Positions 380-39,948 of a stretch of DNA of 64,000 nucleotides are shown here, one piece after another. Origin of the DNA: a bacterium (GTDB lineage: Bacteria > Patescibacteriota > Minisyncoccia > Phycocordibacterales > CAIRYW01); the NCBI GenBank assembly GCA_043744615.1, contig JAYTUJ010000030.1, positions 1,329 through 65,328 on the forward strand. The letters are read 5' to 3'. Below the pieces are notes generated by a model. The model did not search any database and was not told where the DNA came from. It saw only the letters and a program-made list of their open reading frames with translations. Position numbers and translations under genes: made by a program. Positions within the stretch are counted from its first letter, which is position 1, and every line of letters begins with the position of its first letter.

Positions 380-2251
380 TTACATACTTTCTAACTCCTT
401 TTTTGCTTTTTGAATCGCTAATACTTGTGAAGGGTCTGAGGTAATAATTTGATCTTCGGTGTATGAAGCAATAACTTTGAGGGCTACGTGTTTTGATCCC
501 GCAAAAAAGATACCTTCCCCTACTCCTGATTCGAGTAATAAGAATTTTTCTTCATCGGTGAGGTTAAATGTTTTTTGTACAGCATCAATTGATGACGGAG
601 ACTGTTTAAGTAAAATTTGAATTGATGAGTTGGTAATAATCGGTACACCGTATGGTGAACTCATAAAGTCTTCAACGTCTTGGGTGATTGTTGCTAAACC
701 AAGATAATATTTTCGACATCGTTTTGCTAAACCAAGCAAAAACGAAGCGGTGTCTTCTGATTTCATCATCCACCAAGCCTCGTCGATAACAAGTAATCGC
801 TTGCGAAGTTTTTCTCGGATTGCATTCCAGATGTAATGCATAACAATATACATCGCCACAGGTTTGAGTTCGTCTTCCATGTCTCGTACTGAAAACACAA
901 TGAATTTTGCATTAATGTTTACGTTTGTTGGTTTGTTAATAAACCCTGCCCACGTACCTTTTGTATACTTTGTCATTTTTTGTGACAATGATTCAGCTCC
1001 TTCCATTCCAGAAAGAACCATTTCAAAGTCAGATAATAATGGTGGTTCTACGTTTGAAAAATCAGAGTCGGGAGTAATATCTTTAAGTGCGTATGTTTCA
1101 CTAATTGCTCGGTCGATGATTGCATCTTCTTCGGGAGAAAGCCCTCCAAGCATAAGTCGAAACAAGCCAACAAGATTAATAATGTTTGAACGTAATACAT
1201 CTGAAGCAGATTCGTCTTCACGAGCTTTTGGTAGATCAAACGGGTTAATGTGGTGTTCAGACGTTAAAGAAATATTAAAGTATCGCCCCCCTGTTGCTTC
1301 AGCCATGTATTCATATTCTCGTTCGGGGTCGATTACAATTACATCAGTTTCAAACATGAGTGTTCGAAGAATTTCGAGCTTTGTCATATATGATTTTCCA
1401 GAACCTGCTTTAGCAAATGTTACTGAGTTGTAGTTTTCAAGTGAAAATCGATCAAACAAAATCAAACTTGAGTTGTGTCGGTTGATTCCATACAAAATTC
1501 CTTTGTCTGAAGTAAGGTCAAACGATACGAATGGAAACAAACTTGAAAGCGGCGAAGAGTTTAGTTTTGAGTGTACTAAAAGTTCATCGTTTCCTAATGG
1601 AATAATACTTCTGAATGCCTGTTCTTGTTGAAACAGTGCAGGTTTTACATACACTAATTTTGCTTCAAGAATTGATTTAATTTCAGATTCTATTTTATCA
1701 AGCTCTGCATCGTTTTCACCGTAAATAGAAATGTATAAACCAACATCAAATATTTTTTCTTGAGCTTGTTGTAAGTTGTCTCGTAAACTTTCGAGATCTT
1801 GATATGCAGTATCGAGCATCGGGTCTCGTACCATACCTTTACTTTCTCGGTCGGCAATTTGGCTTTGTACCTCGGCAACCTTTTTTTGAAACGTTCGTAA
1901 AATATCAGACGTATCAATTGGATGGATAAAAATCGAAACATCAAAAACTTTGTCGAGGTTAATAATCGGGGAGAACCAGTTTTCAGAAAGGAAACGAGGA
2001 TATGAGATAACAAAAAATGATCGCACAATTTTGTCGCCAAGATTCAGTGATCGAGGAGTAACTTTTAATGCTGATGGAGCAATGATATCGCGGAGCTCTA
2101 AGTTTGCAGCACTATAAATTTCTTGTGGCAAAATAGAAGTAACCCCTTGCTGTGGTGCAGTGTTTTTGTTTCCTCCTCCAAATAATGTATTAAATATTCC
2201 CATATTATTTTGCAAAGTTACCCATAATGTTTGCTGGCTTATCGATTTCAC
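380..2251 (-). CDS. virB4: VirB4/PrgJ/TcpF-family type IV secretion ATPase
   Basis: Walker A is GSGKSY and Walker B is LLVIDEAWW. The N-terminal IAPSALK motif is typical of Gram-positive VirB4 homologues. The called start is a GTG; an in-frame ATG at 2201-2203 sits 1 nt after the upstream ORF's stop. Confidence 0.85.
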   Translation of the reverse strand: MKSISQQTLWVTLQNNMGIFNTLFGGGNKNTAPQQGVTSILPQEIYSAANLELRDIIAPSALKVTPRSLNLGDKIVRSFFVISYPRFLSENWFSPIINLDKVFDVSIFIHPIDTSDILRTFQKKVAEVQSQIADRESKGMVRDPMLDTAYQDLESLRDNLQQAQEKIFDVGLYISIYGENDAELDKIESEIKSILEAKLVYVKPALFQQEQAFRSIIPLGNDELLVHSKLNSSPLSSLFPFVSFDLTSDKGILYGINRHNSSLILFDRFSLENYNSVTFAKAGSGKSYMTKLEILRTLMFETDVIVIDPEREYEYMAEATGGRYFNISLTSEHHINPFDLPKAREDESASDVLRSNIINLVGLFRLMLGGLSPEEDAIIDRAISETYALKDITPDSDFSNVEPPLLSDFEMVLSGMEGAESLSQKMTKYTKGTWAGFINKPTNVNINAKFIVFSVRDMEDELKPVAMYIVMHYIWNAIREKLRKRLLVIDEAWWMMKSEDTASFLLGLAKRCRKYYLGLATITQDVEDFMSSPYGVPIITNSSIQILLKQSPSSIDAVQKTFNLTDEEKFLLLESGVGEGIFFAGSKHVALKVIASYTEDQIITSDPSQVLAIQKAKKELESM

Positions 2252-2846
2252 CCGGATTAAATAATTTATAGAAAAGTTCTACAAGTTCTTCGGTTCCAAG
2301 CGATACTGTTTTTATTCCCGCACTTGAAAGCCCTTGTTCTACAACGGCAACTCGTTGTTCAAGTTGGCTTCGATGTTCTTCAAATGTTTGGTTTTCTGTA
2401 ATTTTATTTTTTTTACCAATACCAAGCATGCTCCCTATTCCTTTTGATGTATCAAGTGTTGGTGGGCTATATGGTACAACAACAAAAAAAGTTTTTGTCA
2501 TAATGTTTACACTTTCGGTAAATGCTCGGATGAATTCAATATATTCTTTTGTTTGAATTCGCATTAAGTCTGTTGGTTGTGCTTTATAACGATCTTCAAG
2601 TAAAAGTAAATATGGTTTTATATCAAGTCGTCGTGACTGCATAAAAATTTGAACAGAAAAGTTAAGAGAGTTTAAAAAGTTTTGAAATTGCAAAATAATT
2701 GCTGTTTGCTCGTCACCACTTTTGAGTGCAAAGTTAAGTGACGAGGTCATTACAAGTCCTCGCATTGAGCCATCTTTTAAAATTAAGATGCCGTCACGGA
2801 CTTCTTTGATTGGAACGAATTCTTGTGTAGGAGCTGAGTTTGCCAT
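2205..2846 (-). CDS. Hypothetical cytoplasmic protein, translationally coupled to virB4
   Basis: 213-aa ORF. Its stop at 2205-2207 is followed by 1 nt and then the virB4 ATG. No recognisable motif. Confidence 0.5.
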   Translation of the reverse strand: MANSAPTQEFVPIKEVRDGILILKDGSMRGLVMTSSLNFALKSGDEQTAIILQFQNFLNSLNFSVQIFMQSRRLDIKPYLLLLEDRYKAQPTDLMRIQTKEYIEFIRAFTESVNIMTKTFFVVVPYSPPTLDTSKGIGSMLGIGKKNKITENQTFEEHRSQLEQRVAVVEQGLSSAGIKTVSLGTEELVELFYKLFNPGEIDKPANIMGNFAK

Positions 2847-2858
2847 GTATGTATTGTA

Positions 2859-3338
2859 CTAGATTGTAAACGAGTCTGAAACATGGTCTTCCTCACCCTG
2901 TCTAAAACTTTTTCGAGTATTATTACGACTGCTTATTGATTCATTAATATCTAAACTCCACGTAAGGTCGCGTAATTTTGAATCATTTAATTTAGGAACA
3001 AACACTGGTTGTTCATTTGAATTAACAGCACCCATTTGGGTTTGGCTGTTAGTTATTTGCTTTTTCTCCCAGACATATAATTTTTTCCCAAGTGCGTATT
3101 TGATGATGTCATCAACACTTTCTAAAAAAGGTTTTTTGGGATTAACTCGATAAAAAGCAAGTGCTCCTGAAAAAGCACCAACAGGTAACATTAAAATTAG
3201 TGCAACTGGTAATGGTAAAAATTTATAGAGGGTATAACAGATTCCCCCGCCACCGACAATATAAATAAATTGTTTGAGTGTAAATGGCCCAAATATTTTA
3301 TCTTCGATTTCAATAAATTGAGGAACTTGATATCGCAT
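2859..3338 (-). CDS. PrgI-family (VirB3-like) small membrane protein
   Basis: The N-terminal pattern YQVPQFIEIEDKIFGPFTLKQFIYI followed by two hydrophobic helices matches the PrgI/VirB3-like family. The position between the VirB6-like gene and virB4 fits MPF-FATA gene order. Confidence 0.55.
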   Translation of the reverse strand: MRYQVPQFIEIEDKIFGPFTLKQFIYIVGGGGICYTLYKFLPLPVALILMLPVGAFSGALAFYRVNPKKPFLESVDDIIKYALGKKLYVWEKKQITNSQTQMGAVNSNEQPVFVPKLNDSKLRDLTWSLDINESISSRNNTRKSFRQGEEDHVSDSFTI

Positions 3339-3375: not shown

Positions 3376-4161
3376 TTAGTTTATCGGTTCTCGGTACGGG
3401 TCACTGTGTTTAGCGGGCTCCGCAGAAAATTTATTTGCTTTTAAATTTTCTGCTACTACGTTTGAAGTTGGATTGTTTATCGAAACTCCAGAGACAACAG
3501 ATTTTTTTGTTTTATCAGCAAGAAAATCTTTCGTAAAACCAATTGGGGCCATTGATGTGGGCGATGCGATTGATGTTGTCGGTGCAGGCATACTCGATTG
3601 TGCTGGTTCCGTTTCGGTAAATTCTATCACTGGGATTGGTTTTGCAATGGCTGGTTTTATAAGATTAACACTTGAAGCAACCGCAGCAGAAAAAGTTGGT
3701 ACGTTTTTAATCACCGCACCTGTTTTGAAGGGTTGTTCTATTTCTTTGAGTACATCGTTTCTTGTTAGGTCACTATGATCTTCTTCTGCGTGAGGGTCGT
3801 ACTCAGAAACATCATATGCATTTTTTGTCTTTTCACCTTTTTCACCATACAAATCAATCATTTTTTGCTTGATCGGTTTGAATATTTTTTCATCAATGTC
3901 GTGAACAATTTGATCAGCAATATTTTTTTCAATCCCAATTTCTTTGCAAATCATATGTGAGAATTCATTTCCAGGAATGAAACCCATCATCACGTCGATA
4001 GTCATATTAATTAACTGACCTTCTGAATCGATGTGGAGTTTGTGGGCTGTGCCTATTTCATGAATCTTTTCCCAATTTTCATCCGTACTAATTACATCCT
4101 GCACTTCTTGCGGAAGTTTGTTAAAAGTAGCTCTATATTTTTTTCCTGTTATAAATTGCAT
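3376..4161 (-). CDS. Hypothetical soluble protein within the T4SS-like operon
   Basis: 261-aa ORF with no TM segment. The C-terminus is low-complexity and Pro/Ser/Thr-rich. Confidence 0.5.
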   Translation of the reverse strand: MQFITGKKYRATFNKLPQEVQDVISTDENWEKIHEIGTAHKLHIDSEGQLINMTIDVMMGFIPGNEFSHMICKEIGIEKNIADQIVHDIDEKIFKPIKQKMIDLYGEKGEKTKNAYDVSEYDPHAEEDHSDLTRNDVLKEIEQPFKTGAVIKNVPTFSAAVASSVNLIKPAIAKPIPVIEFTETEPAQSSMPAPTTSIASPTSMAPIGFTKDFLADKTKKSVVSGVSINNPTSNVVAENLKANKFSAEPAKHSDPYREPIN

Positions 4162-4171
4162 ATTAATTATG

Positions 4172-7100
4172 TTAAGGAGTTATTATTGATGATTTTGAAC
4201 TTTCTGAAGCAGCTTTAATTTTTTCACGAGCAGTAGTTGTTAATTTATCAGCAGAATGTCCGCTCAATCCAATAAACCTACCGTCTCCGTTGTCTGCAAA
4301 TTTTTCAGCCTTTGAATAATGAACAGATTCTTTGTTAATTGTATCTTTTAGATTATCTATTTCACCTTTGATAAATCCTTTTTCCACATCAGTTTTTGTA
4401 CCCTTTGTACTCTCTAACTCGTCCTCTTTTTTAATTAAGAGTGTTACATTTTTGTCCAAAGATTCTTTTTGATTTTTTAATTTTTCTTTAAAAAGATTTG
4501 CAACAGTATCAAAATCATCTTCTTGCAGTTTTTTAGAACTGATTAAACTTTTTAATAATTCAGGAGTCATACGATCTTGAAAAGCAGCACCATGATTTTT
4601 AATAAGATCGGAAAGAGTTTCTTTGTTTAGTCCGCCCAACTGAGCATCGTTTAATGTAGTTAATTGAGTTTTAACAGCACTAGATTTTTCTGCAGGAGTG
4701 GTTGTCGTTGAGTCTAGAATATGCTGTGTTTCGGTTTGATGGTACGATAAATGACCTTCTTTTGCACGGTTTCTTTCTTGGGTTACTGCGTCCGAAGTTT
4801 TAAAATATTGAGTTTCTTTCCCTGTAATAGGATCTTTCGGTTTTGCCATTGCTGTAAGTGAGCCCTTTTTCTCAAAATAATTGTCTTGAACAGCTTGTTC
4901 TTTTGGTGAAAGGCCTTCATATATTCTTTTTGCTCGGTCGTACGAGGTAGGATCTTTTTTATCCTCAGCAAGTTTCTTTAAGTGCGAAGCAAGTTTTTCG
5001 GGTTTATTTCTAACTTCTCTTGCATACGCATCATCATTTTTCTCAAGCATTTCAGTTTTTGCTTTTAGACTTTGAACAAAAGGTAAGCCTCCTGTTGAGT
5101 TTCCGTGTGAGTCAACCCCAGCCTTGCCCCCCAGACTAAATTCTGTAGCAGCATGAGTCAGAGCGATTTGTTTTCTTGCCCACTTACCTCGCCAAGTATC
5201 CTGAGTCGCCTGTCTTTTTAGTTCCTCCCCCTCTTCACTATTTTCAAGTCTGTGTTCTGCATTATGAGCAAACTGATTCCATTTTTTTTGTGGATATGCT
5301 AATACAGCACCTTTTGCAAAATTAGTCCCTTTACTTCGCATTTTTGCAAATAATGCAGCAGAATTTTCAGCACCGCTTATTCCAAGACGTTTACTGATAG
5401 TCACTGAAAATATAAGCATGGTAATGAGAATTATAAAGTTCAAGACCACACCCAACGCACTTGTTTTTGGTGTATCGCTAAAGGCAGAAGAAAAAGCGGT
5501 AAGTCCTAAACCGTCTTTAAAAGTAGGATCATTAGCTATCCGCAACACTACCCAGATCATGATCAAAAATGCAGGGGCATAAATAGCATTATTAATTAAA
5601 GACTTTTTCCATTCATTACTCATTTCTTCTCCACCCGGAAGTATTGGTGCGACAAACGCAAGTGGAGACAGTATTAAAAGACCAATAAAAGTTACAAATC
5701 TTCCGATAAAAGTAAGGGTTACCGCAAGCATGACAATTGTAAAAAAGAATGCAAATATAATACCCATTGCAAAAAGTAAAAATGGATGTTCGCTTCGAGC
5801 AAAATTACGCCCCGGATCAGCGTCTACTGCATTAGGTGTTTTACCATCAGCATAAAAAGATTGTATACGAACTATCGATAATAGAGCCGTCCCTAGTTTA
5901 CTTTGTGTAATATTTGCTTTTGTATCACCATCTTGAAATGTTATATGACTATAAAATTCAGTTGCAACAATGTTTGATGCATCAATAATTGCTTTGGTAA
6001 AAAATAGACTAAAGTTTATTAACAGCGCTGCAATAATTAGCTTGCTGATTAACTGTTTTACGTTGTATGTATGTAGTTGAAGAATGGTTCCGATTGATGC
6101 ATAAATAAGTGCAAAGATAAAAAAAATGTTTGAGAGATCTCTAAAAGTTTTCCATGCGTCATTAATGACGGTCATGCGTTTTATCTGATCACTCATATTT
6201 AAAACCGTTTTGTCAAAAACTAAATCAAATAGACTTGCTATCCAACCAGCAAGCCACATAAATGCAAACATTATGTAGTAGAGTCCTTGAGTAACACAGT
6301 TAATTAAATGGAAATTCAAAGGATTAAGACTACAAGTACCATCGTCACCAACAGTTCTTCCATTCTGGATTTTAGACAAATCTTTAGGATTTAGTGTTGT
6401 ATTCGCTAATTCCTTATTAGCAGAAGCTTCTTGATTGCGTGTATTTGTTGCAATACCTAATAGCTTTGCAAGTTGAGGTTGATTGTTTATACTACCATCC
6501 CCTCTTTTTTCTGCGGGATTAGTAAAATAAGCACTATTACTATCGTTTTTCCATATCCAGGTTGTTCCATAGTTTGACATGTTTCCATCGCTATACACTG
6601 TTCGTAGATCGTATGCTCCACAGCCATGTTCTTCAGCAGGATTAAATCGAACAAGCCATACTCCTGTTACAAAATCGTCCGCAGAATTTGGTTTTTGATC
6701 GGTTCCTGGGTTATATCGAATTATGTAAGTTTCACTTTTTGTACTATTTTGCAGAGGAACACTTATAAAGTATTCTGCTCTACCGTTTACTAAGGTAGCT
6801 GTGTTCAACTCTATTTTTGTATTTACTTGTTTTGTTGTAGCGTTTAAATCTTTTACATTCCAAAAAATTTGTCCATCAACTGCAGTCCCTCCTCCTGCTC
6901 CTACAAAACTACTTTCACTCTGGTTTTCTTGAGATATAGATATTCTTTTCGCCGCATCTAAATTTACAGAGGTCTGACCGTTTGTCCCATCAGAATATCC
7001 TTTATTACCATAAGTTGCGGTACATTGTTGAGGTGTGTAAAGAGTGTGGTATTGAGGGTCGTTATCATTTGCAATTATTGAAGCTTTAGTATAATCCGCA

Positions 7101-7189
7101 ACAAAAAACTGCCCCACAAACAGCACAGACAAAAAAATCGCTGAAAGCAGTTTGTGTTTTTTTGTTTTTTTGTTGCGTGGTGTGAACAT
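4172..7189 (-). CDS. VirB6/TrbL-like polytopic membrane protein, with a signal peptide, a ~270-aa ectodomain and a ~400-aa hydrophilic coiled-coil tail
   Basis: Signal/anchor at the N-terminus, then 5-7 hydrophobic helices around aa 300-620 typical of VirB6/PrgH/TcpH. A long K/E/T-rich C-terminal region follows. Confidence 0.6.
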   Translation of the reverse strand: MFTPRNKKTKKHKLLSAIFLSVLFVGQFFVADYTKASIIANDNDPQYHTLYTPQQCTATYGNKGYSDGTNGQTSVNLDAAKRISISQENQSESSFVGAGGGTAVDGQIFWNVKDLNATTKQVNTKIELNTATLVNGRAEYFISVPLQNSTKSETYIIRYNPGTDQKPNSADDFVTGVWLVRFNPAEEHGCGAYDLRTVYSDGNMSNYGTTWIWKNDSNSAYFTNPAEKRGDGSINNQPQLAKLLGIATNTRNQEASANKELANTTLNPKDLSKIQNGRTVGDDGTCSLNPLNFHLINCVTQGLYYIMFAFMWLAGWIASLFDLVFDKTVLNMSDQIKRMTVINDAWKTFRDLSNIFFIFALIYASIGTILQLHTYNVKQLISKLIIAALLINFSLFFTKAIIDASNIVATEFYSHITFQDGDTKANITQSKLGTALLSIVRIQSFYADGKTPNAVDADPGRNFARSEHPFLLFAMGIIFAFFFTIVMLAVTLTFIGRFVTFIGLLILSPLAFVAPILPGGEEMSNEWKKSLINNAIYAPAFLIMIWVVLRIANDPTFKDGLGLTAFSSAFSDTPKTSALGVVLNFIILITMLIFSVTISKRLGISGAENSAALFAKMRSKGTNFAKGAVLAYPQKKWNQFAHNAEHRLENSEEGEELKRQATQDTWRGKWARKQIALTHAATEFSLGGKAGVDSHGNSTGGLPFVQSLKAKTEMLEKNDDAYAREVRNKPEKLASHLKKLAEDKKDPTSYDRAKRIYEGLSPKEQAVQDNYFEKKGSLTAMAKPKDPITGKETQYFKTSDAVTQERNRAKEGHLSYHQTETQHILDSTTTTPAEKSSAVKTQLTTLNDAQLGGLNKETLSDLIKNHGAAFQDRMTPELLKSLISSKKLQEDDFDTVANLFKEKLKNQKESLDKNVTLLIKKEDELESTKGTKTDVEKGFIKGEIDNLKDTINKESVHYSKAEKFADNGDGRFIGLSGHSADKLTTTAREKIKAASESSKSSIITP

Positions 7190-7226: not shown

Positions 7227-8858
7227 TTACCGTGTTCCTCTTTGACGGGTTGTTGTGGCTCCTCGGTTTCGTGTTGTTGTGCTGTTTGTATTACCACTTG
7301 TGCCATCATTACTATTTGCGTAATTTTGAGTACTACCACTACTGTCATTATTTAAAACTTTGTTAAGCGCAAGTTTTACAAGTTCGTTAACAAGAGCACT
7401 TACGACTTGGTCAAATTGATTTGCTAACACTAGGCGATTTTCACCAAGGTTTAATCGATTTTCAACTTTTCCTTGGATAAGTTTACCAGGAGTTGTTACT
7501 TTACAAGGTTCTGTTGCTTTGCCGTTTACAATCGGTCCCTCACATTCTTTAAAGTCCATAAAACCGTTACCAATTTGACGTTCTGTTTGTGCAGAATTAT
7601 TTTGTTTTGCAATTCGTGCTTGCATTTCTTCTTGGGCCTGGTACTTTGCACCATAGTAGTTGTTATTTGGTTGAATTGTTTGAAAGAATCCGTCCATTCC
7701 CCCTTTGCTAAAGTCACCATTTGTAAATTGTTGGTAGTTTTGAGTATTTTGCATGTATGGGCTTAGTGTACAGCCTGACCGTTGTGAATATCCCGAGTTA
7801 TAGTTTACTTTATTTTGTTGATATTGCTGACCTAGGTTATTTTGATTATTTGTGCTTGTTCCTGTATGTACGTTTCCACCACCACCAGTCATACTGCTAC
7901 CGGTCATGTTATTGCTGTAACTATTTAAAAGTCCAAGTTGTACGTCGGTTCTGAAGGGTTGGCAGACCGTATTGCCTTGCCCGATTTCTTGTATAAAAGC
8001 TCCTGCGTTTCGGTCGGCAAGGTTTTGAAAATATTTATCAGGGTTTTCTAAAAAGGCTGGGTTACCATTAAATCCTGATTTAACCCATTCAATTGTGCTT
8101 TGTGCAATATATGTAATCAGGGCGTTTACGATACAGTACCCTACTGAGTCCCAACTGATTCCTGTTGGAATACCGAATACAACAAGACCCGTTTCTTTTG
8201 CATTCAGTGATTTTGGAGCAACAGGAACTTGAGGGTCGGTTTCACTACTAAATAATGAACCGATAAGGTTTCCCGCAATAGTCAAAGCTGCTCGCGCAAC
8301 TGCTTGTCCTAAAATTCCACCAATACATGCACCCGCGGCACCAACACCCGCGGTCTTTGCTGACCGTTGTTGAGTCGTACTCCCATTACCTGTTTGTGCT
8401 AATGAGTTCGCACGTTGATTTACTTGCGCAGCATTTGCTTTTTGAGCTGCCGCCTGTGCCTGGGTGTTTTTAGCATCGGCAGCTTTTTGTTGTGCAGTTT
8501 TTGTTTGATTTGAAGAGTTTTTATTTATGTTATAGTCGTCGGGATTTAATGTTTGTTTAGAAGAAGTTTTTATTAAATTTCCATTTGCATCGTAGGTATA
8601 ATCTGGATTTTGTTGAGAATTAACCTGTTCTTGTTGGTTTGTGTTTCCAAAAGTGTACCCTCCTTCGTTATTTGGATCTTGTGCACTTCCTGCATCAGCA
8701 CCAGCCTGTTGCTGCTGAGCCTCATCACCACTTGTATCTAAAATTATAGCCGCAAAAGTTTGTAATGGAAATGCAAAAAATACTTGAGAAAGCACCATCA
8801 CTAAAAAAAGAAGACTTGATGTTGTTTTTAGTGTGTGTGAATAAAATGTTTTCTTCAT
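7227..8858 (-). CDS. Secreted Gln/Asn/Ser/Thr-rich protein with a central Gly/Ala hydrophobic segment
   Basis: N-terminal signal peptide. Q/N-rich low complexity flanks a GVGAAGACIGGILGQAVARAALTIAGNLIGSLF segment. Confidence 0.55.
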   Translation of the reverse strand: MKKTFYSHTLKTTSSLLFLVMVLSQVFFAFPLQTFAAIILDTSGDEAQQQQAGADAGSAQDPNNEGGYTFGNTNQQEQVNSQQNPDYTYDANGNLIKTSSKQTLNPDDYNINKNSSNQTKTAQQKAADAKNTQAQAAAQKANAAQVNQRANSLAQTGNGSTTQQRSAKTAGVGAAGACIGGILGQAVARAALTIAGNLIGSLFSSETDPQVPVAPKSLNAKETGLVVFGIPTGISWDSVGYCIVNALITYIAQSTIEWVKSGFNGNPAFLENPDKYFQNLADRNAGAFIQEIGQGNTVCQPFRTDVQLGLLNSYSNNMTGSSMTGGGGNVHTGTSTNNQNNLGQQYQQNKVNYNSGYSQRSGCTLSPYMQNTQNYQQFTNGDFSKGGMDGFFQTIQPNNNYYGAKYQAQEEMQARIAKQNNSAQTERQIGNGFMDFKECEGPIVNGKATEPCKVTTPGKLIQGKVENRLNLGENRLVLANQFDQVVSALVNELVKLALNKVLNNDSSGSTQNYANSNDGTSGNTNSTTTRNRGATTTRQRGTR

Positions 8859-8865
8859 ATAAAAT

Positions 8866-9882
8866 TTATTGTAGGGTTTTTAGATTTTCCCATGCAAAAC
8901 CTTGTTCGTTTTCATCAAAAATTATACCATTTTTTTGAAAATAAGTTGCGATACTTTTAAACAGGTCAAGTTGGTGGGCTTCAAGTGCCTGATATGTTTT
9001 TATTCCAAGCAAACCTTTTAACGGATCTTCTTGATACGAAGCAATATTTTTTAATGATTCATATTGTGCATTATATGTATTTAATATTTCCACATGTGTT
9101 GTTGCAAAAACTTTTGGCACAGAGATAAGTGAAAGTTTTTCGGCAACATTTTTGTAAACAATAATTTCTGTATTTGAAAGTAGTTTTGATTGATCTCGAG
9201 AAGCAAACTTCGCAAGTTCTTTTTTGGTGACTTCAATTATTTCGTTTCCATATTGTTTTAATTCATCATTATTTTTTGGTGTAAATGTATGAATACTTGT
9301 GATTGAATATATTGGCTCAGTTGACGGAACATCAATTTTTCCGAGTACATTTGAAACAATTTGTTCTCGGCCAACATCGGAAACCTCACCATTTTGTTGG
9401 TTTGACATGTACTGAGTAAATAATTCTTGAGAAAGTTTGTCAGACAAAGTAGTTTTTAAGGTTGTCGTTGAGCCATCTAATGTGCTTGATGCAAAAGATA
9501 CTGAAGTTGTCATTGAATCATTGGGGCCAGCAATTCGTGGATCACGACTCATCGATATTTCGGCTCCATCAGTTGTTCCATCACCATCAGTATCTGCATT
9601 TTTTGGATCTGTTCCCCACACACTTTCTTCCCAATCTTTTATTCCATCACCATCAGTGTCGATATTGGATGCTGTATAAAATGCAGTAGAGGTACTAAAG
9701 TCCAAAACATTTTGTTCGTTATTTTTTGATGTTCGAGAAAAATCAATATTTGATATTTTTGAAAAACCAGCAATCGTTAAAATAATAATTGCAAAAATAG
9801 AAGCGATGAGTATACGAGAAGGTACTTGAGAAATTTTTGTGTAGATACGATTAAAGAAATTCATATCTAAATTATATATCAA
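8866..9882 (-). CDS. Membrane-anchored protein with thrombospondin type-3-like Ca-binding Asp repeats
   Basis: N-terminal TM helix. Tandem DTDGDGIKDWEE and DTDGDGTTDGAE motifs. The called start is TTG; an in-frame ATG lies 6 codons in. Confidence 0.55.
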   Translation of the reverse strand: MIYNLDMNFFNRIYTKISQVPSRILIASIFAIIILTIAGFSKISNIDFSRTSKNNEQNVLDFSTSTAFYTASNIDTDGDGIKDWEESVWGTDPKNADTDGDGTTDGAEISMSRDPRIAGPNDSMTTSVSFASSTLDGSTTTLKTTLSDKLSQELFTQYMSNQQNGEVSDVGREQIVSNVLGKIDVPSTEPIYSITSIHTFTPKNNDELKQYGNEIIEVTKKELAKFASRDQSKLLSNTEIIVYKNVAEKLSLISVPKVFATTHVEILNTYNAQYESLKNIASYQEDPLKGLLGIKTYQALEAHQLDLFKSIATYFQKNGIIFDENEQGFAWENLKTLQ

Positions 9883-9906: not shown

Positions 9907-11193
9907 ATGAAAAAAAATATCCCCCCTTTTTTATTCTCTTCTATTTTTTTTATTGCACTCAGTTTCTCGGTTCAAATTTCTTCAGTTTTTGCTGAAAATA
10001 ACGATTCACCAAATGTTGTTCTTACAAAAGATTTGCGTCTTACAATGAACGACCCCGAAATTGTTCATTTACAACAAGTTCTTAATGCGAGCGGTTTTGC
10101 TACGGTTTCTGTTGTGGGTGCAGGTTCTAAAGGAAGCGAAACTTCATATTTTGGACTTAAAACTCAACAAGCTGTTATAAAATTTCAAGAAGCATTTGCA
10201 AGTGAAATTTTGGCTCCAATCGGTTTAACACAAGGAACAGGCTTTGTGGGAGCAAAAACTCGAGCAAAAATGAATGAATTATGGTCAAATAACTACTTTT
10301 TCTCATATTACGGCATAGTTTTGCCAGCAAATACGACTGTTAATACAGATACAAGTACAAATACAGACTCTTCAAATCAAGATAATACTAATAACGCTAA
10401 TAATACCTTTAATAACCAAGGTAATTTTTCTCAAACATCAAGTACAACAACGGTTGCAACAAGTACTTCTGCAACAAGTACTGCCACAACAACAAAAACA
10501 ACCACAGCTTCAACAACAAAAACTATTTCAGGGACAGCATATGGAAGCTCAAATGGATATCGCCCCGGTAAAACCATTACAGACTTGTTGGGTGTATGGA
10601 GTGATCCGAATAATAAAGTGAAAGTGTATGAAGTAAATCCTTCTCAAGCAAAACGAGGAGATGAAATTTTAGTTGCAGGATCAGGTTTTACATCAAAAGA
10701 TAATACGATTAAGTTGCGAGGAAAAAGTAAAAATATTTTGATAAAAGGTGTTGAGTCAAAAACAAGTAATGAATTAACTTTTATTCTTCCACAAGGTGCT
10801 GAGTACGGAACGTCAACTGTGTCAGTCTCAAATTCTGCGGGTACCAGTAGAGAAGATTCTGTAAAATCTATTGAACTTATTGTCAGTGCAACAACGACAT
10901 GTGCAACGGTATGTGTCGACTCTGTTGATCAAAAAGGTCACGGTCTTAGCACAGAATTTATAGTTAAAGGAAGTGGTTTTACAGATTCAAAAAATTTAGT
11001 GATGTCACGATTTGGCCCAATTGGTATGTATGATTCTGAAAAGAAAGGAACAATCATAAATATAAAATTAATTGAATCAGGAGTGATTCTTAATGCGCTC
11101 CCTAACTTGAGTGGAAAAATTGATTTTCCAATTATCGTTGCTAACAAAAATGGTTTCTCTAAATTCTTTACGGTCACTGTATCGATGCCTTAA
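9907..11193 (+). CDS. Secreted protein with a peptidoglycan-binding (PG_binding_1-like) domain, a Thr/Ser/Asn-rich linker and IPT/TIG-like domains
   Basis: Signal peptide. LQQVLNASGF...LKTQQAVIKFQ resembles PG_binding_1. GDEILVAGSGFTSKDNTIKL and KGSGFTDSKNLVM resemble IPT/TIG. Confidence 0.6.
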   Translation: MKKNIPPFLFSSIFFIALSFSVQISSVFAENNDSPNVVLTKDLRLTMNDPEIVHLQQVLNASGFATVSVVGAGSKGSETSYFGLKTQQAVIKFQEAFASEILAPIGLTQGTGFVGAKTRAKMNELWSNNYFFSYYGIVLPANTTVNTDTSTNTDSSNQDNTNNANNTFNNQGNFSQTSSTTTVATSTSATSTATTTKTTTASTTKTISGTAYGSSNGYRPGKTITDLLGVWSDPNNKVKVYEVNPSQAKRGDEILVAGSGFTSKDNTIKLRGKSKNILIKGVESKTSNELTFILPQGAEYGTSTVSVSNSAGTSREDSVKSIELIVSATTTCATVCVDSVDQKGHGLSTEFIVKGSGFTDSKNLVMSRFGPIGMYDSEKKGTIINIKLIESGVILNALPNLSGKIDFPIIVANKNGFSKFFTVTVSMP

Positions 11194-11199
11194 TGCAGA

Positions 11200-11742
11200 G
11201 TGATAATTGTTAAAATAAATATGAAGTTATTTTTGTTAAAACAAATAAAAAAGATTATCCGGACATCAGCTCTCGTCTTTGTTTTTATTTGTTTTGTATC
11301 ACTTGGTACATTTAGACATATATATGCGGCTGGTGTTGGTGGAGCTTCTGGAGGTGGAACTGGCGGCGCAACGAGTGGCGCAAGTGCAGGCGGTGGCGCA
11401 GGGGGTTCTTCGGGTGGTGGTTCTGGTAAAACAACAACATATACAAATTTTGGAAGTGAACGCGACACAGTGCTTCCTTGTTTATGTGATTGGGAAGAAG
11501 GAGAAATAAAATTTATTGTGTACCACACAACAATTCCTGACGGCAATTCATTAACTCTTGTGTACAATCTTTTAGAATCAAAAATAAAAGAAAATTATAA
11601 CGTAACTGGAAAATATTATTTAGGACAATATTCATCTCAAACAGATACATGTAATTTTGGAATCGGATATTATTGCGTTGAATTAACTGGTCAAAAATGG
11701 CCAACATGGGGTGACTCATCAACCGGTATTGGAGCTTCTTAA
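11200..11742 (+). CDS. Small secreted protein with a Gly-rich linker and a Cys-containing C-terminal domain
   Basis: Signal peptide, a (GGx)n tract, then a domain with CLC...C...C. Confidence 0.5.
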   Translation: MIIVKINMKLFLLKQIKKIIRTSALVFVFICFVSLGTFRHIYAAGVGGASGGGTGGATSGASAGGGAGGSSGGGSGKTTTYTNFGSERDTVLPCLCDWEEGEIKFIVYHTTIPDGNSLTLVYNLLESKIKENYNVTGKYYLGQYSSQTDTCNFGIGYYCVELTGQKWPTWGDSSTGIGAS

Positions 11743-11771: not shown

Positions 11772-12611
11772 TTATTGTAAGACAGTTAAAGCGGCAGTAA
11801 GAGACATCCATGTTTCTACTTGTATGTCTTCTGCTCGGATCTTTTTATCCAACTTTATTTTTTCAAAAGCAGTTTCGAGTTTTTTTATATTATATCCAGC
11901 GGTTGCAAGATTTTTTAGTAAAAGTTTTCTTTTATGAGCAAAACCAGCATGCACGAGCGATGCAAAAGATGTTTCAGATACAGAATATTTTTGAAATAAT
12001 ATTTTTGAAATATGTTTAAAGGTAATGACTGCAGAGTCTACATTTGGAATCGGAAAAAAGTTTCCCCGTGCCACTTTTTGTGTAATAACGGGAGTGCAAT
12101 ATGCTTTTACAAAAATTGAAAGAATACTTTCTTTTTTATCGCGCGCAATAATTCTCTCTGCAACTTCTTTTTGTACTAAAATTGTAATTAATGATGGCTG
12201 TAAGCTTTCTTCACATTCAAGAAACTTTCTAATGATTGCACCCGTAATGTAATACGGAATATTTGCTATTAATTTGTAATTTATTTTTTGAGATTTTTTT
12301 GCAGGAGGTTTTTTATTTAAAAATATATCTTTTATTTCAATCTCCAAAATATCGCCATGAATAAGTGTAAAAGTGTTGTTCGCTACATAATTATTGAATG
12401 TTTCTGGAAGAATGTTAATAAGCCGATCATCTTTTTCTATAGCAAAAACATGTGCACCAGTGCTTAGAATTTCTCGAGTTAGATTTCCTGTTCCAGGCCC
12501 AATTTCAAGAACAATATCATCTTTTGATATTTCAGAATCAGTTACGATCTTTTTAAGAATGTACGTGTTATTTAAAAAATTTTGACCTAAACTTTTTTTA
12601 GCAAATACCAT
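11772..12611 (-). CDS. rsmA: 16S rRNA (adenine1518/1519-N6) dimethyltransferase RsmA/KsgA
   Basis: N-terminal SLGQNFL and a GPGTGNLT SAM-binding motif. Confidence 0.85.
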   Translation of the reverse strand: MVFAKKSLGQNFLNNTYILKKIVTDSEISKDDIVLEIGPGTGNLTREILSTGAHVFAIEKDDRLINILPETFNNYVANNTFTLIHGDILEIEIKDIFLNKKPPAKKSQKINYKLIANIPYYITGAIIRKFLECEESLQPSLITILVQKEVAERIIARDKKESILSIFVKAYCTPVITQKVARGNFFPIPNVDSAVITFKHISKILFQKYSVSETSFASLVHAGFAHKRKLLLKNLATAGYNIKKLETAFEKIKLDKKIRAEDIQVETWMSLTAALTVLQ

Positions 12612-12635
12612 ATATGTATTAGTATAATCGCAATA

Positions 12636-14567
12636 TTAAAAATCAATAAATATTGCTTTTACACCTGTTGGTTTTTGTTCGTGTTCAATAAGATCTTCCT
12701 CGATATCAAATATAAATTCTGAAGGAACGTTTACTTGTTGCGTTCCAAATATTGTTCGTAGTTGTGCATATGTAAGAAAAACTTTTTTTCGTGCACGAGT
12801 GATTGCAACATAAAATAATCTTCGTTCCTCTTCTGCTTCCTCTTTTGTTATTTCATTTTTATCTAATCGTGTATGTGGAAACAAACCGTCTTCGAGACCG
12901 GTTATAAAAACATAATCAAATTCTAATCCTTTCGACGCATGAACTGTCATAAGCTTTGTTCCAACAGATTTTTCATCCAAAGAATCTTGATCACTCACAA
13001 GCATTGCGTCATCAATAAATTTCATGATTCCATCACCAAGTGGCATTGCGTCGTATCGAGCAGCAAGTGTTACGAGTTCTCGGACGTTTTCTAATCGTTC
13101 TAACTCTTCAGAATCTCCTTGTTTTAACATTGTCTCTATTCCCGATTCAAAAAGTGCAAGTTTTAAAACATCAGAAGGCGTTTTTTTGTAAGCCGCATCT
13201 CGGATACGAGCTAAAATGTTTCGGTATTGCAAAACTTTATCTCTAACGGCTCCAGTAAGTTCATTTTCTTTTCCTTCAAGAACTTTTAACATGGTTACTT
13301 TTCCAATTCCTCGAACCGGCGTATTGATTGTCCTTTTTATATCTCCAAGCGCATCTTCGTTAAGTGCGGCACGAAGATATGAAATAATATCTTTTACTTC
13401 TTTTCGTTCAAAATATTTTGTACCAATCAGATCGTATTTAAGTTCACGTCGCAAAAAAGCATCTTCGATTACTCGTGATTGAAAGTTTGCTCGATATAAT
13501 ACCGCGACTTGTTCCGGTTTTATACCTTTATCAGTAAGTTCTTTTGTTGTTCGAGCAATAAAATTCGCTTCTTCGTTTTCGTCTGGCGCAGCGAATACAC
13601 TGATTTGCTCGCCTTCTTCATTTTTAGTAAATAGATTTTTCTTTTTTCTAATAACGTTTTTATCAATGACCGAATTTGCTGCTTGAAGAATTTTTTGAGT
13701 TGACCGATAATTTTCTTCAAGCAAAATAACGGTTGCCTCGGGATAATCTTTTTCAAAATCTAAAATATTCTTAATATCTGCACCTCGCCAACTATAAATA
13801 TTTTGATCAGCGTCTCCAACCACCGTAATGTTTCGATGTCCTTCTGCTAATGTGTTTGCAATTACGTACTGTACTCGGTTCGTATCTTGATATTCATCAA
13901 TATGAATATACTGCCATTTTTCTTGGTATTTTTTTCGAACCTCGGGAATATTTTTAAGCAAAAATGCAGTCTTATAAATTAGATCATCAAAGTCTAATCC
14001 CTTCTCTTTTTTCAAAATAGATTCATATTCTTTCCATACTTCAGCAACAATTGAACCAAAATACTCATCTCCTTGTTTTATTTCATATTCTTCTTGGCTT
14101 ACATAGGCTCCTTTTTCTTTAGAAATAATCCCAAGTATTTTATTAGGTTCATATTGTTTTGGATCGTACCCTTTTTTTTCAAGAGCCTCTTTTACTGCTT
14201 TTTTTGAATCACTTCGGTCGTAGATACTAAAATTAGCAGGTACCCCAATCACATGACCGTCATGCCGTAATATATTTACACCAAGACTGTGGAAGGTTGA
14301 TAAAAAAGGTTTTTCTTCAAAAGTCATCGGTACATTTAGGCTCGGATCTTCATTGATTAACTTAAAAACTCGTTCCTGCATTTCTTTTGCAGCTTTGTTT
14401 GTGAAGGTAATAGCTAGAATCTTTTTTGGGTCAACTCCTTTTTTAATAAGATTTAATATTCGATGGGTTACCGTATTAGTTTTTCCTGCCCCCGCTCCTG
14501 CAATAATAAGAAGAGGGCCTTCTTTGTGTTCAACCGCTTTAAATTGTTCCGGATTAAGGTGCTTCAT
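12636..14567 (-). CDS. UvrD/PcrA-family DNA helicase
   Basis: Walker A is GAGAGKT. TFTNKAAKEM, DEYQDTN and the helicase C-terminal motifs are present. Confidence 0.85.
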   Translation of the reverse strand: MKHLNPEQFKAVEHKEGPLLIIAGAGAGKTNTVTHRILNLIKKGVDPKKILAITFTNKAAKEMQERVFKLINEDPSLNVPMTFEEKPFLSTFHSLGVNILRHDGHVIGVPANFSIYDRSDSKKAVKEALEKKGYDPKQYEPNKILGIISKEKGAYVSQEEYEIKQGDEYFGSIVAEVWKEYESILKKEKGLDFDDLIYKTAFLLKNIPEVRKKYQEKWQYIHIDEYQDTNRVQYVIANTLAEGHRNITVVGDADQNIYSWRGADIKNILDFEKDYPEATVILLEENYRSTQKILQAANSVIDKNVIRKKKNLFTKNEEGEQISVFAAPDENEEANFIARTTKELTDKGIKPEQVAVLYRANFQSRVIEDAFLRRELKYDLIGTKYFERKEVKDIISYLRAALNEDALGDIKRTINTPVRGIGKVTMLKVLEGKENELTGAVRDKVLQYRNILARIRDAAYKKTPSDVLKLALFESGIETMLKQGDSEELERLENVRELVTLAARYDAMPLGDGIMKFIDDAMLVSDQDSLDEKSVGTKLMTVHASKGLEFDYVFITGLEDGLFPHTRLDKNEITKEEAEEERRLFYVAITRARKKVFLTYAQLRTIFGTQQVNVPSEFIFDIEEDLIEHEQKPTGVKAIFIDF

Positions 14568-14637
14568 TTGAGCTACTATAACATAAAATAGTAATTCTTG
14601 ACGTTATTCATTTATCCCCTTCTAAACATAATAACCT

Positions 14638-14668
14638 TTGACTTTCTATACCATACCTATATCATATA
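14638..14668 (+). promoter_or_regulatory. Candidate sigma70-like promoter (TTGACT, 17 nt, ATCATA) ahead of a ~150-nt leader for the LysM-M23 peptidase gene
   Basis: TTGACT at 14638-14643, a 17-nt spacer and an A/T-rich -10. Downstream lies the hairpin AATGGCT-N6-AGCCATT. Confidence 0.25.
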
Positions 14669-14825
14669 TATGTAGTCACACAGAACGTCACTAAACACTA
14701 AATGGCTTAACAGAGCCATTTTATACCGAGACACCAGAATTAGCCTTAATTTTAAGCTTATTTTACCAAACAAAGATAGAAGAAGCCGGTTTTATATATT
14801 TGTATGTCAATTAGGTGCCCTAGCT

Positions 14826-15857
14826 ATGGGCGCTTCAATATTTTTGTGGCCGCTAGTTACTAATGCGGGCGCCCTCTCTTTTATCAATGATCTGTTTAAA
14901 ACAGACCAAGCACAAGCTCAAAAGGTTGAAGTTAAATCAGAAAGTTCACAAACAATAGATCTTCCTGAGGCTGCTATAAACCCAGATCCTAACCCTATTA
15001 AAAATACTGTCTCTCCTACTATTGTTGGAGAGGCAGCTTTTGTTGCTGAATCTGGACCCGAAGGAACATCTGCAGATATTCAAAGTAAAACAATATCAAG
15101 CGACCATATTTCAGTATATGTTGTTCATCCTTCAGATACATTGGCTCAAATAGCAAAAATGTTTAATGTTTCACCAAATACAATTCTTTGGGCCAATGAT
15201 TTAACCTCTGCTAAAGACATAAAACCAGGGCAGAGTCTCGTTATTTTACCAGTATCTGGAATCAAATATTCTGTTAAAAAGGGCGATACCATAGAGTCTA
15301 TTGCTAAAAAGTTTAAGGGTGACGCTCAAGATATTACTAAATTTAACGATTTTGACTCTGATCAAAAGTTAGTCATTGGGGACACTGTTATTATTCCAGA
15401 TGGTGAAATGGTTGTTGTGGTTAAAAAACCTACTATTGTCGTAAAAGGTGCAGGGATGAAAATCTTTAAAGATGACGGAAGCCTTGTAAAAACATTTTTG
15501 GCTAATACAACAGGATATTTTATGCGCCCTATTACTGGTGGGATGAGAACACAAGGTTTACACGGAAATAACGGTGTTGACCTTGCAAGCTCGTGCGGTG
15601 CTTCTGTTATGGCTGCAGCAGGAGGAAAAGTTATTTTAAGTCGAGAAGGAGGATGGAACGGAGGCTACGGAAATTATATCGTTATCAGTCATTCAAACGG
15701 TACTCAAACTTTGTACGGACACTTGCAAGAGACAAAAGTCTCAGCCGGAGAATCAGTTGATAAGGGTGAAGTGATTGGTCTAATGGGAAGCACAGGTAAT
15801 TCAACAGGCTGTCACCTTCATTGGGAAGTTCGAGGAGGACGAAACCCACTTGGCTAA
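14826..15857 (+). CDS. LysM-domain M23 metallo-endopeptidase (cell-wall hydrolase)
   Basis: Two LysM-like repeats (YVVHPSDTLAQIAKMF; YSVKKGDTIESIAKKF). The M23 motifs HxxxD and HLHWEV are present. Confidence 0.8.
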   Translation: MGASIFLWPLVTNAGALSFINDLFKTDQAQAQKVEVKSESSQTIDLPEAAINPDPNPIKNTVSPTIVGEAAFVAESGPEGTSADIQSKTISSDHISVYVVHPSDTLAQIAKMFNVSPNTILWANDLTSAKDIKPGQSLVILPVSGIKYSVKKGDTIESIAKKFKGDAQDITKFNDFDSDQKLVIGDTVIIPDGEMVVVVKKPTIVVKGAGMKIFKDDGSLVKTFLANTTGYFMRPITGGMRTQGLHGNNGVDLASSCGASVMAAAGGKVILSREGGWNGGYGNYIVISHSNGTQTLYGHLQETKVSAGESVDKGEVIGLMGSTGNSTGCHLHWEVRGGRNPLG

Positions 15858-38733: not shown

Positions 38734-38739
38734 TATTAT

Positions 38740-39948
38740 ATGAAATTCAACGTAAAAACTCGTACATCATCAGGAGAAGAAGTTGAATCTGTAAAAGAGG
38801 CTCAAGATAAGTATACTCTTTTTAAGGATGTAAAAAAAAATGGAGAAACTTTAATTTCTTTTAAAGCTGTTAAGGATGGTAGCTCATTTTTTTCTTTAAA
38901 ATTCAGTGGAGGAAAAGTAAAAGAACTTGAAAAAATAACATTTGCCCGAAATCTTGGTTCAATGCTTGAAGCAGGTCTTGCTCTTTCAAGAGGACTTACT
39001 GTTCTTGAAAAACAATCTAACAAAGCTTCTTTTAAAAAAGTCGTGATTGGACTTAACAATGCAATTAGCGAAGGAAAATCTTTCCATGAAGCTATTGAAA
39101 TGCATCCAACTGTTTTCCCTAAAATATTTTCTGCGATGGTAAAAGCGGGTGAAGAAAGTGGATCGCTTTCTGAATCACTTAAACTTGTTGCATATCAAAT
39201 GGAAAAGATATTTCTTTTGAAAAAGAAAATTAAGGGGGCAATGATTTATCCCGGAGTTGTTGTTTCTTTGATGATCGTGATTGCAATTTTGATGCTTATT
39301 TATGTGGTACCAAGCCTAACTGCTACGTTTAAAGAGCTCGGTGCAAAACTTCCGGCGAGTACTCAATTAATTATTGATGTCAGTGATTTTTTGAAAGAAC
39401 ACACAGTTATGGCTTTCGTTATTTTGTTTGGAGGAGGGTTTTCGTTTACGCGTTTAATTGCAACAAAAAAAGGACAAAGATTTTCAGATTGGTTTGTACT
39501 TCATATGCCACTTATTTCTGAAATGGCAAAACAAACAAATGCAGCACGAAGTACACGAACACTTTCGTCACTTATTAATTCTGGAGTAAGTATCGTACAA
39601 GCTTCAGAGATTGCTGCCGAGGTTGTGCAGAATTCATATTATCAAGAAGTTCTAAATAAAATTAGCGCACGAGTTGAAAAAGGGGAAACGCTTTCTTCGG
39701 TGTTTGAAGAATACCCACATTTATTTCCTGTCTTTGTGACCGAAATGGTAAGTGTAGGAGAAGAAACAGGAAAATTAGGGAGTATGCTTTTGGGTGTTGC
39801 TACATACTACGAAAACGAAGTTGAGCAAAAAACAAAAGACCTCTCAACTATTATTGAACCGTTGTTGATGATTTTAATTGGTCTTGGTGTAGGATTTTTT
39901 GCGATCTCGATGATTACTCCAACGTATACTGTATTGAATAATATTTAA
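38740..39948 (+). CDS. pilC: Type IV pilus assembly platform protein (GspF/PilC family)
   Basis: Two GspF repeats with 3-4 TM helices. Directly downstream of pilB. Confidence 0.85.
   Translation: MKFNVKTRTSSGEEVESVKEAQDKYTLFKDVKKNGETLISFKAVKDGSSFFSLKFSGGKVKELEKITFARNLGSMLEAGLALSRGLTVLEKQSNKASFKKVVIGLNNAISEGKSFHEAIEMHPTVFPKIFSAMVKAGEESGSLSESLKLVAYQMEKIFLLKKKIKGAMIYPGVVVSLMIVIAILMLIYVVPSLTATFKELGAKLPASTQLIIDVSDFLKEHTVMAFVILFGGGFSFTRLIATKKGQRFSDWFVLHMPLISEMAKQTNAARSTRTLSSLINSGVSIVQASEIAAEVVQNSYYQEVLNKISARVEKGETLSSVFEEYPHLFPVFVTEMVSVGEETGKLGSMLLGVATYYENEVEQKTKDLSTIIEPLLMILIGLGVGFFAISMITPTYTVLNNI

Follow-up and report, generated by a model that had tools for sequence, protein, structure and literature searches.

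A probable VirB6-type subunit with a hypervariable ectodomain and a long basic tail in a chromosomal type IV secretion locus of Patescibacteria

A gene for a protein of 1005 amino acids (aa), with a hydrophobic centre between two large hydrophilic regions, lies in a 64,000-nucleotide (nt) stretch of Patescibacteriota DNA (contig JAYTUJ010000030.1; the whole stretch is called the window hereafter). The locus raises the question of which family the hydrophobic centre belongs to, and of what the two added regions could contribute. Our analysis pointed to a likely answer, namely that the protein is a VirB6-type channel or platform subunit of a chromosomal Patescibacteria type IV secretion system (T4SS); our confidence is lower for the mechanistic details proposed below. 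The gene and the parts of its product were delimited as follows:

4172..7189, minus strand: whole gene, 1005-aa extended VirB6-like protein (list of open reading frames (ORFs) and translation; identical product in two Logan assemblies)
7082..7189, minus strand: residues 1-36, basic N-terminus and hydrophobic helix, signal peptide or signal anchor (hydropathy)
6311..7081, minus strand: residues 37-293, lineage-specific extracytoplasmic domain with C56, C190 and C286 (alignments, searches, model)
6500..6853, minus strand: residues ~113-230, candidate degenerate cadherin-like/He_PIG/Big_9-type immunoglobulin (Ig) repeat (weak evidence)
5375..6310, minus strand: residues 294-605, hydrophobic core with six long helices, conserved and VirB6/TrbL-like (alignment, AlphaFold, Foldseek)
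4175..5374, minus strand: residues 606-1005, basic charged tail, partly helical and partly low-confidence, probably cytoplasmic (composition, AlphaFold)

The gene was an uninterrupted ORF of 1005 codons on the minus strand, running from an ATG at 7189 to the stop codon at 4172-4174. This bore out the length given in a first-pass annotation of the same DNA, which also had the extent right (4172-7189) and had overlooked the strand. A plus-strand reading of the interval was ruled out by the many stops in its translation. Scans for tandem repeats, promoters and terminators gave nothing exceeding chance.

We have collected 251 homologues at E <= 0.001, and the family statistics presented here derive from the 120 that were listed. 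The listed proteins either had no name or were called “hypothetical”, and the organisms, where given, were Patescibacteria groups. Conservation was limited to query residues ~290-640, with all 119 relatives aligning over the core; the identity to any database relative was at most 40% and was confined to this region. Hydrophobic segments were found at residues 302-326, 351-374, 377-404, 466-520, 530-554 and 574-605, and AlphaFold modelled them as six long helices (a1 to a6) with a predicted local distance difference test score (pLDDT) >90. The first-pass annotation had predicted five to seven transmembrane (TM) helices and suggested a structure model as a check; the model showed the six-helix core, in agreement with the six segments, whereas their crossing of the membrane was ambiguous. 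The core residues N392, F393, S394, D403 and R497 were invariant, and the family could be recognised by the signature LINFSLFFTK-x-IIDASN together with an invariant Arg.

The TrbL/VirB6 families considered were Pfam PF04610 (TrbL) and its relatives PF19590 and PF19597. TrbL was the sole recurrent family, matching 13 of 68 relatives at E <= 0.01, and the matched regions corresponded to query residues 367-593. One relative (P0117) scored 26.1 bits against a curated TrbL cut-off of 25.9 and was the only one above threshold, with two others reaching 25.5 bits for TrbL (P0038) and 26.3 bits for TrbL_4 (P0045). A Foldseek search of the PDB returned R388 TrwI/VirB6 chains at ranks 1 to 4 (8rt9_F: E 4.6e-3, prob 1.00, target template modelling score (TM-score) 0.45), followed by DotA at rank 5 (E 0.08, prob 0.25). 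Through its relatives, that is by transitive homology, the core most likely belongs to a divergent TrbL/VirB6 family. The earlier call of a VirB6-like protein was supported by the TrbL matches of relatives, by the modest fold matches to TrwI and by the gene neighbourhood described below. The core gave no match in a tblastn search of 72,556 plasmids.

The core was followed by the 400-aa, charged hydrophilic tail that had been recognised at first pass (33% K/R/D/E). Its residues 640-1005 comprised 13% K, 9% E, 9% L, 9% T, 8.5% A and 8% S. The composition had been considered unusual, but it turned out to be the family norm: a tail of at least 200 aa was present in 119 of the 120 relatives, with a median length of 353 aa and a median K/R/D/E fraction of 0.33, and the family tails shared a composition of A, K, G, E, L and R, with no Cys. 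Nearly all of them (97%) carried a net positive charge, the median being +13, of which +10 fell within the first 100 residues. Directly after the last hydrophobic helix, the net charge in the family was +2.3 over the first ~27 aa and +6.9 over the next ~70. When the query tail alone (641-1005) was compared with the 119 relatives by phmmer and jackhmmer, no match was obtained even at E <= 10; hence, the BLAST alignments that extended into the tail were taken as compositional. The long basic low-complexity tail is a family-wide trait that is kept in composition and not in sequence.

The tail had also been described as a coiled coil. A crude heptad scan of a/d hydrophobic periodicity reached a maximum of 0.525, compared with 0.534 +/- 0.08 in 200 shuffles, and the term was therefore unsupported. 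The AlphaFold model showed many separate tail helices of at most 35 residues, split by low-confidence stretches at 681-709 and 777-857 and interrupted by 10 prolines. No tandem repeats were found in the tail.

At its other end, the protein started with a basic N-terminus (MFTPRNKKTKKHK; five K/R within residues 1-11), and hydropathy placed a hydrophobic helix at residues 12-34. Such a helix occurred within the first 60 residues of 108 of the 120 relatives. It may be a signal peptide, as the first-pass annotation had it, with a possible cleavage after TKA36, or else a signal anchor. Residues ~37-293, a stretch of ~260 aa, were hydrophilic and rich in N/T/G/S, in accordance with the N-terminal extracytoplasmic domain of ~270 aa proposed earlier. 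The Cys pair reported for this domain was found to be part of a set of four (C56, C190, C286 and C298), the only Cys of the protein, all N-terminal to the core and with C298 at the core start. A Cys pair placed directly before the first core helix, here C286/C298, was present in half of the family.

The pre-core region ranged from 0 to 322 aa in the family (median 91) and, with 299 aa, the query was among the ten longest. The 119 closest relatives aligned sporadically before ~residue 275 and not at all before residue 193. A relative with 39% identity had no similarity to the query in the ectodomain, and no similarity cluster among the 35 long N-regions of the family exceeded three members. AlphaFold modelled the ectodomain with a pLDDT <50. 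The ectodomain is hypervariable across the family and is the fast-evolving part of the protein; it is also the single atypical part of this protein, being unusually long here.

We have also looked for relatives of the ectodomain outside the family. A word-index homology search with the ectodomain alone gave no match, self included. When residues 35-295 were searched with HMMER against 1.84 billion representatives, only three non-self matches emerged, all of them weak, and these were Ig-repeat giants (P0121 with He_PIG x41, P0122 with PKD, and P0123 with RibLong/Big_9). Their significance was the sum of up to 22 weak repeat matches, the best single one reaching 13 bits, and therefore they do not represent independent evidence. 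Against one full Ig repeat unit, the query showed 19-25% identity with the pattern TGVF-W-P...GPG-Y...VSDG. A repeat hidden Markov model (HMM) built without the query scored 18 bits on residues 159-225 and gave no score on other family N-regions. Pfam searches returned no Ig-type module on the ectodomain at E <= 10, and nothing relevant on those ten relatives whose N-regions are longest. An AlphaFold 2 model of residues 100-240, calculated with the Ig-repeat alignment, had six strands at pLDDT 46, and Foldseek ranked cadherin/Ig domains first for it, with non-significant values (E >= 0.2). Because AlphaFold supplied with the Ig-repeat alignment had low confidence and leans toward the assumed fold, the presence of one degenerate adhesin-type Ig module in the ectodomain stays a lead.

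The K/R density along the family fell from 0.29 before the first TM helix to 0.06 where the ectodomain approaches the membrane and 0.057 in the loop 405-468. It was 0.155 between a4 and a5, 0.043 between a5 and a6, and 0.11-0.18 beyond a6. In the topology that we propose, the N-terminus would be cytoplasmic and followed by the signal/anchor helix, with the ectodomain outside and stabilised by disulfides. Helices a1 and a2 would form a membrane hairpin, a3 and the acidic variable loop 405-468 would lie outside, in the manner of the P2 loop in Agrobacterium VirB6, and a4-a6 would bring the chain back, leaving the basic tail in the cytoplasm. In the work of Jakubowski et al. of 2004, Agrobacterium VirB6 was reportedly mapped with the N-terminus out, a large outside loop after the second TM helix, and the C-terminus in, an arrangement with which the K/R densities of the family agree. 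The tail is probably cytoplasmic: we favour this location because the basic stretch after a6 fits both the positive-inside rule and the C-terminus of Agrobacterium VirB6.

Several points weigh against a VirB6-type subunit threaded in this way. By parity, six crossing helices after an outside ectodomain would place the tail outside; only two VirB6 helices are membrane-inserted in the R388 and Dot/Icm structures (PMC9259494, PMC12501162); and K/R residues are frequent in the short a2-a3 loop, a poor fit to the proposed topology. Regarding the family assignment, the query itself had no match to the VirB6/TrbL models of Pfam and NCBIfam at E <= 0.1. The family profile reached TrwI among PDB sequences only at E 0.63, in a search dominated by low-complexity tail matches, and the Foldseek hits had E >1e-3 and modest TM-scores.

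The topological points would suit the same protein family with its 400-aa tail on the extracellular side, as a TolA-like wall-spanning spacer or fibre. Just a1 and a2 would then be in the membrane, as they are in the solved VirB6 and DotA (PMC9259494, PMC12501162), with the remaining core forming an extracytoplasmic stalk as in TrwI and DotA. The simple parity of six helices after an outside ectodomain also gives an outside C-terminus, and the family profile weakly resembles K/E/A-rich spacers such as TolA (E 0.37). The C-terminal domain of F-plasmid TraG is periplasmic, which we have counted on the same side. However, the region after the last helix was consistently basic in the family, with the predominantly positive tails described above, and the a5-a6 loop was acidic and K/R-poor, as an outside loop before an inward-crossing helix would be. 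In addition, Cys was absent from the tail, all four being located before the core, and neither a coiled-coil nor a repeat signal suggested a fibre. We thus regard an extracellular tail as unlikely; the surface-exposed fibre suggested at first pass loses ground with it, given the net positive charge of 97% of the family tails and their strongly basic start after the last helix. A cytoplasmic tail remains our preferred placement.

The points on family assignment would suit a core unrelated to VirB6, for instance a permease-like polytopic subunit that merely co-occurs with T4SS genes. The query had no direct Pfam/NCBIfam match, the PDB profile match to TrwI was not significant, all-helical membrane bundles may give spurious fold matches, and SEML1_0013, a neighbour in the S. 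epibionticum locus, is also labelled “ABC transporter permease”. On the other hand, TrbL was the only recurring Pfam family (13 of 68 relatives), with nearly the whole TrbL model covered in some cases; structural ranks 1 to 4 were all VirB6, with DotA at rank 5; and the gene occupies the slot directly upstream of virB3-virB4, the canonical virB6 place in monoderm systems. We consider an unrelated core very unlikely and retain the VirB6 assignment.

Finally, a VirB6 core gene fused to a separate hydrophilic-protein gene by sequencing or assembly error, which the first-pass annotation had named as what could overturn its reading and which the lack of sequence-level homologues of the tail and N-domain among relatives could suggest, is effectively refuted: two sequencing runs gave the identical ORF in independent assemblies and the NCBI record has it too, so that it is not a chimera, the tail was contiguous over at least 200 aa in 119 of 120 relatives, the core-plus-tail layout is common to the whole family, and the junctions had neither a compositional break nor a repeat.

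The VirB6-like gene belonged to a minus-strand operon with gaps of 7-37 nt, in the order 338-aa TSP3 protein, 543-aa protein, VirB6-like protein, 261-aa protein, PrgI, TrsD and VirB4. Its partners were:

8866..9882, minus strand: first operon gene, protein of 338 aa, TM helix at the N-terminus and bacterial TSP3 repeat (Pfam TSP3_bac, 3.6e-08)
7227..8858, minus strand: 543-aa secreted/membrane protein, conserved upstream partner (homologue upstream in 57 of 59 loci)
3376..4161, minus strand: soluble protein of 261 aa, encoded between PrgI and the VirB6-like gene (same-slot orthologues in loci L003-L005)
2859..3338, minus strand: PrgI family protein, VirB3 equivalent (Pfam PF12666, 7e-10; downstream in 54 of 56 loci)
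2205..2846, minus strand: TrsD-family protein of 213 aa, related to the VirB4 N-terminal domain (NCBIfam TrsD NF041427, 4e-05; 54 of 56 loci)
380..2251, minus strand: VirB4 ATPase, CD1110 family (NCBIfam NF045971, 3.5e-111; 53 of 56 loci)

A scan of species-representative genomes yielded 427 related loci, with labels given for the best 80. Nearly all of these 80 were labelled Patescibacteria (Paceibacteria, Campbell-, Taylor-, Zambryski-, Kaiser- and Wolfebacteria). Neighbours were counted in the loci with enough flank, 56 downstream and 59 upstream, taking downstream genes on the same strand. Many of the related loci carry the label “uncultured Candidatus Saccharibacteria”, which looks generic. 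A close relative was carried by a 7.8-kb contig of a metagenome-assembled genome labelled Nitrospira sp. (L050, JBEBJM010000026.1), which was probably mis-binned.

Homologues of the TSP3 protein, whose repeat is of a calcium-binding type, were found upstream in 42 of the 59 loci. The 543-aa protein had orthologues with E-values from 1e-25 to 1e-41 and no match in Pfam or NCBIfam, and it is a candidate uncharacterised T4SS component. It combined a signal/TM helix, a low-complexity stretch rich in Q/N/T, a hydrophobic segment resembling a glycine zipper at ~158-212 and a conserved Cys-containing C-terminal region. The 261-aa protein was found downstream in 27 of the 56 loci, holding the same slot in the three genomes that were checked, and matched no known family.

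The TrsD-family ORF also matched VirB4 N-terminal regions, with a precomputed assignment to PF26593 (TraC-like). It overlaps the listed GTG start of VirB4 and superficially looks like a frameshifted VirB4. A split or frameshifted VirB4 at 2205-2846 was ruled out, the ORF being a TrsD-family gene that is separate in 54 of 56 loci. The true VirB4 start is likely the ATG at 2203, two bases past the TrsD stop; with either start codon, an exact-sequence look-up of the window VirB4 found no record. TrsD is the commonest Patescibacteria T4SS component (PMC12102498). The first-pass annotation had overlooked the TrsD homology of the small gene that separates PrgI from VirB4, as well as the match of the whole locus to the published Patescibacteria T4SS.

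Two bases after the VirB4 stop begins a small polytopic ORF (378-1, minus strand), which spans at least 126 aa and reaches the window edge; its hydrophobic helices are separated by a short K/R-rich loop (NRKKLFKGK). In relatives, virB4 is followed by genes of 112-206 aa and then by T4SS_pilin-domain genes, a region that is cut here by the window start. The ORF could encode a pilin-like or membrane component.

On the other side of the operon, the divergent neighbours were a 428-aa secreted PG_binding_1 protein with a long T/S/N-rich linker, kept in two relatives (9907-11193, plus strand), and a 180-aa Gly-rich secreted protein (11200-11742, plus strand). Beyond them, rsmA, uvrD/pcrA and a LysM-M23 peptidase gene adjoin the T4SS operon (11772-15857). 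The position of rsmA was kept in 51 and that of uvrD in 39 of the 59 loci, including distant Paceibacteria, and the M23 peptidase position was also retained. The synteny between the T4SS and housekeeping genes is unusually stable, and the M23 peptidase could be a VirB1-like wall hydrolase.

At 30-40 kb from the T4SS locus there are type IV pilus genes and comEC, as other envelope machines typical of Patescibacteria; they include a PilB-like ATPase (T2SSE and MshEN; 36979-39948, plus strand) and a PilC-like platform protein (T2SSF; 44540-46039, plus strand). The large window ORFs scanned comprised UvrD, RsmA, ComM, XerC-like, CCA, RNase Y, ClpP, trigger factor, NusA, PilB/PilC, TIM, PGK, RecJ, ComEC, EF-G, EF-Tu, RecA and FtsK. 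Among the scanned large ORFs of the 64-kb window, no family match to a relaxase or a VirD4 coupling protein was obtained, with the small ORFs partly scanned and the left side lying beyond the window.

How could the protein work in such a system? By analogy with TrwI, DotA and PrgH, the core would oligomerise, probably as a pentamer, atop the VirB3/VirB4 ATPase complex. It would form a membrane-proximal chamber and a platform for the assembly of VirB2-like pilins and the passage of substrate. R388 offers one precedent for such an assembly (PMC9259494); for pCF10, a pentameric AlphaFold 3 model of PrgH with pilins (PrgH-PrgF) has been presented (bioRxiv 10.64898/2025.12.18.695078). The tail may act as a flexible docking or tethering arm, conserved in composition, for cytoplasmic partners or anionic lipids, and the fast-evolving ectodomain would extend across the thin cell wall in the direction of the host cell's surface. 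A bolder version, which we consider distinctly improbable, is that the VirB6 subunit took over a distal, host-facing role, with the hypervariable ectodomain (in the query 260 aa, with the candidate Ig-like module and disulfides) as a conduit tip or collar that sets which host cells can be engaged, and the basic tail as a cytoplasmic substrate dock. It builds on a T4SS that in Patescibacteria is not known to have VirB5, recognisable adhesins or a dedicated coupling protein; if true, the turnover of the ectodomain would track host range.

The T4SS of Patescibacteria was the first that was shown to be indispensable to the life of the bacterium carrying it (PMC10633639, PMC12857230). Both the system and its VirB6 homologues had been published before, and our analysis adds little that is fundamentally new. 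It shows that the Paceibacteria-type VirB6 proteins constitute a coherent family with a usable signature, mostly missed by standard HMMs, that they share a basic tail with compositional conservation, and that their N-terminal extracytoplasmic region is the fast-evolving part. These findings could guide annotation and experiments on the host-contacting part of the machine. The component is an ordinary, though poorly annotated, one; what interest remains attaches to the hypervariable ectodomain and to the tail with its conserved composition.

Among known systems, the locus is the published chromosomal, relaxase-less Patescibacteria T4SS resembling the mating-pair formation (MPF) class MPF_FATA, as described by Quinonero-Coronel et al. 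2025 (PMC12102498). It shares with it the neighbourhood of PrgI, TrsD and a CD1110/MPF_FATA-like VirB4 and a chromosomal location among housekeeping genes. The same survey counted 480 VirB6 homologues against 2,474 virB4 genes (PMC12102498), and because of this disparity, proteins like the query were probably among those missed. Wang et al. 2023 showed that the T4SS of S. epibionticum ML1 is essential (locus SEML1_0006-0019; PMC10633639). Compared by description, PrgI has a large gene on either side there: the essential SEML1_0011 (2997 nt, ~998 aa), of a size comparable to that of the query, and SEML1_0013, which has a TrbL/VirB6 fold match, with domains annotated up to residue 1085. The 260-aa ectodomain of the query, with its possible Ig-like module, has no counterpart in relatives.

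The best structural match of the core was R388 TrwI/VirB6 (PDB 7O3V, 8RT9), which has its N-terminus outward, a two-helix membrane hairpin and more hydrophobic helices (PMC9259494). TrwI differs in having 342 aa, with neither the N-terminal domain nor the long tail (TM-score 0.45), and in partnering VirB5 and an outer-membrane complex, which are absent from monoderm systems. DotA of the Legionella Dot/Icm system (PDB 9NGY) is likewise a VirB6-like scaffold, with a signal peptide, two TM and five hydrophobic helices, to which a large extracytoplasmic domain with disulfide bonds is added (PMC12501162). In DotA, however, the added domain separates the TM hairpin from the hydrophobic helices, whereas that of the query precedes the hairpin. 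The DotA system is a diderm, effector-translocating one, and the fold match was weak (E 0.08, prob 0.25).

Extended VirB6 proteins include TcpH of pCW3, Orf15 of Tn916 and ConG of ICEBs1, and the C-terminal domain of TcpH is predicted to be cytoplasmic. Extended VirB6 proteins are an acknowledged class, in which MPF_FA homologues have 700-900 aa with hydrophilic domains beyond the core and added domains without known function (PMC12857230). The query agrees with this definition through its ~260-aa N-terminal hydrophilic domain and 400-aa C-terminal tail, and the extended architecture recognised at first pass, with hydrophilic domains around a polytopic core, held. Its polytopic core and large, partly unstructured hydrophilic C-terminal region are those of monoderm MPF_FA proteins; it differs by the added N-terminal ectodomain before the core and by a VirB4 partner of the MPF_FATA-like/CD1110 type (PMC12102498). 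The comparison with PrgH of pCF10, also made at first pass, was poor, since MPF_FATA VirB6 proteins have ~300 residues (PMC12857230).

The closest plasmid VirB4 (34% identity, 93% coverage) was encoded by the Pontibacillus sp. megaplasmid NZ_CP062975, in a gene cluster with two pilins, then a 779-aa TrbL-like protein (WP_207531474), VirB3, a TrsD-like protein, VirB4 and an M23 peptidase. The local order of extended VirB6, VirB3, TrsD-like protein and VirB4 is common to both loci. Unlike the query locus, the Pontibacillus cluster is plasmid-borne, has two T4SS pilin genes ahead, and its 779-aa protein matches Pfam TrbL directly (E 2e-4), with only its second core half matching the Patescibacteria core HMM (19 bits). 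Nonetheless, this protein has the parts found in the query, namely a signal, a Cys-containing ectodomain of ~180 aa, the core and a basic low-complexity tail of ~330 aa. The extended architecture is therefore not specific to the candidate phyla radiation and is also present in a Bacillota plasmid cluster.

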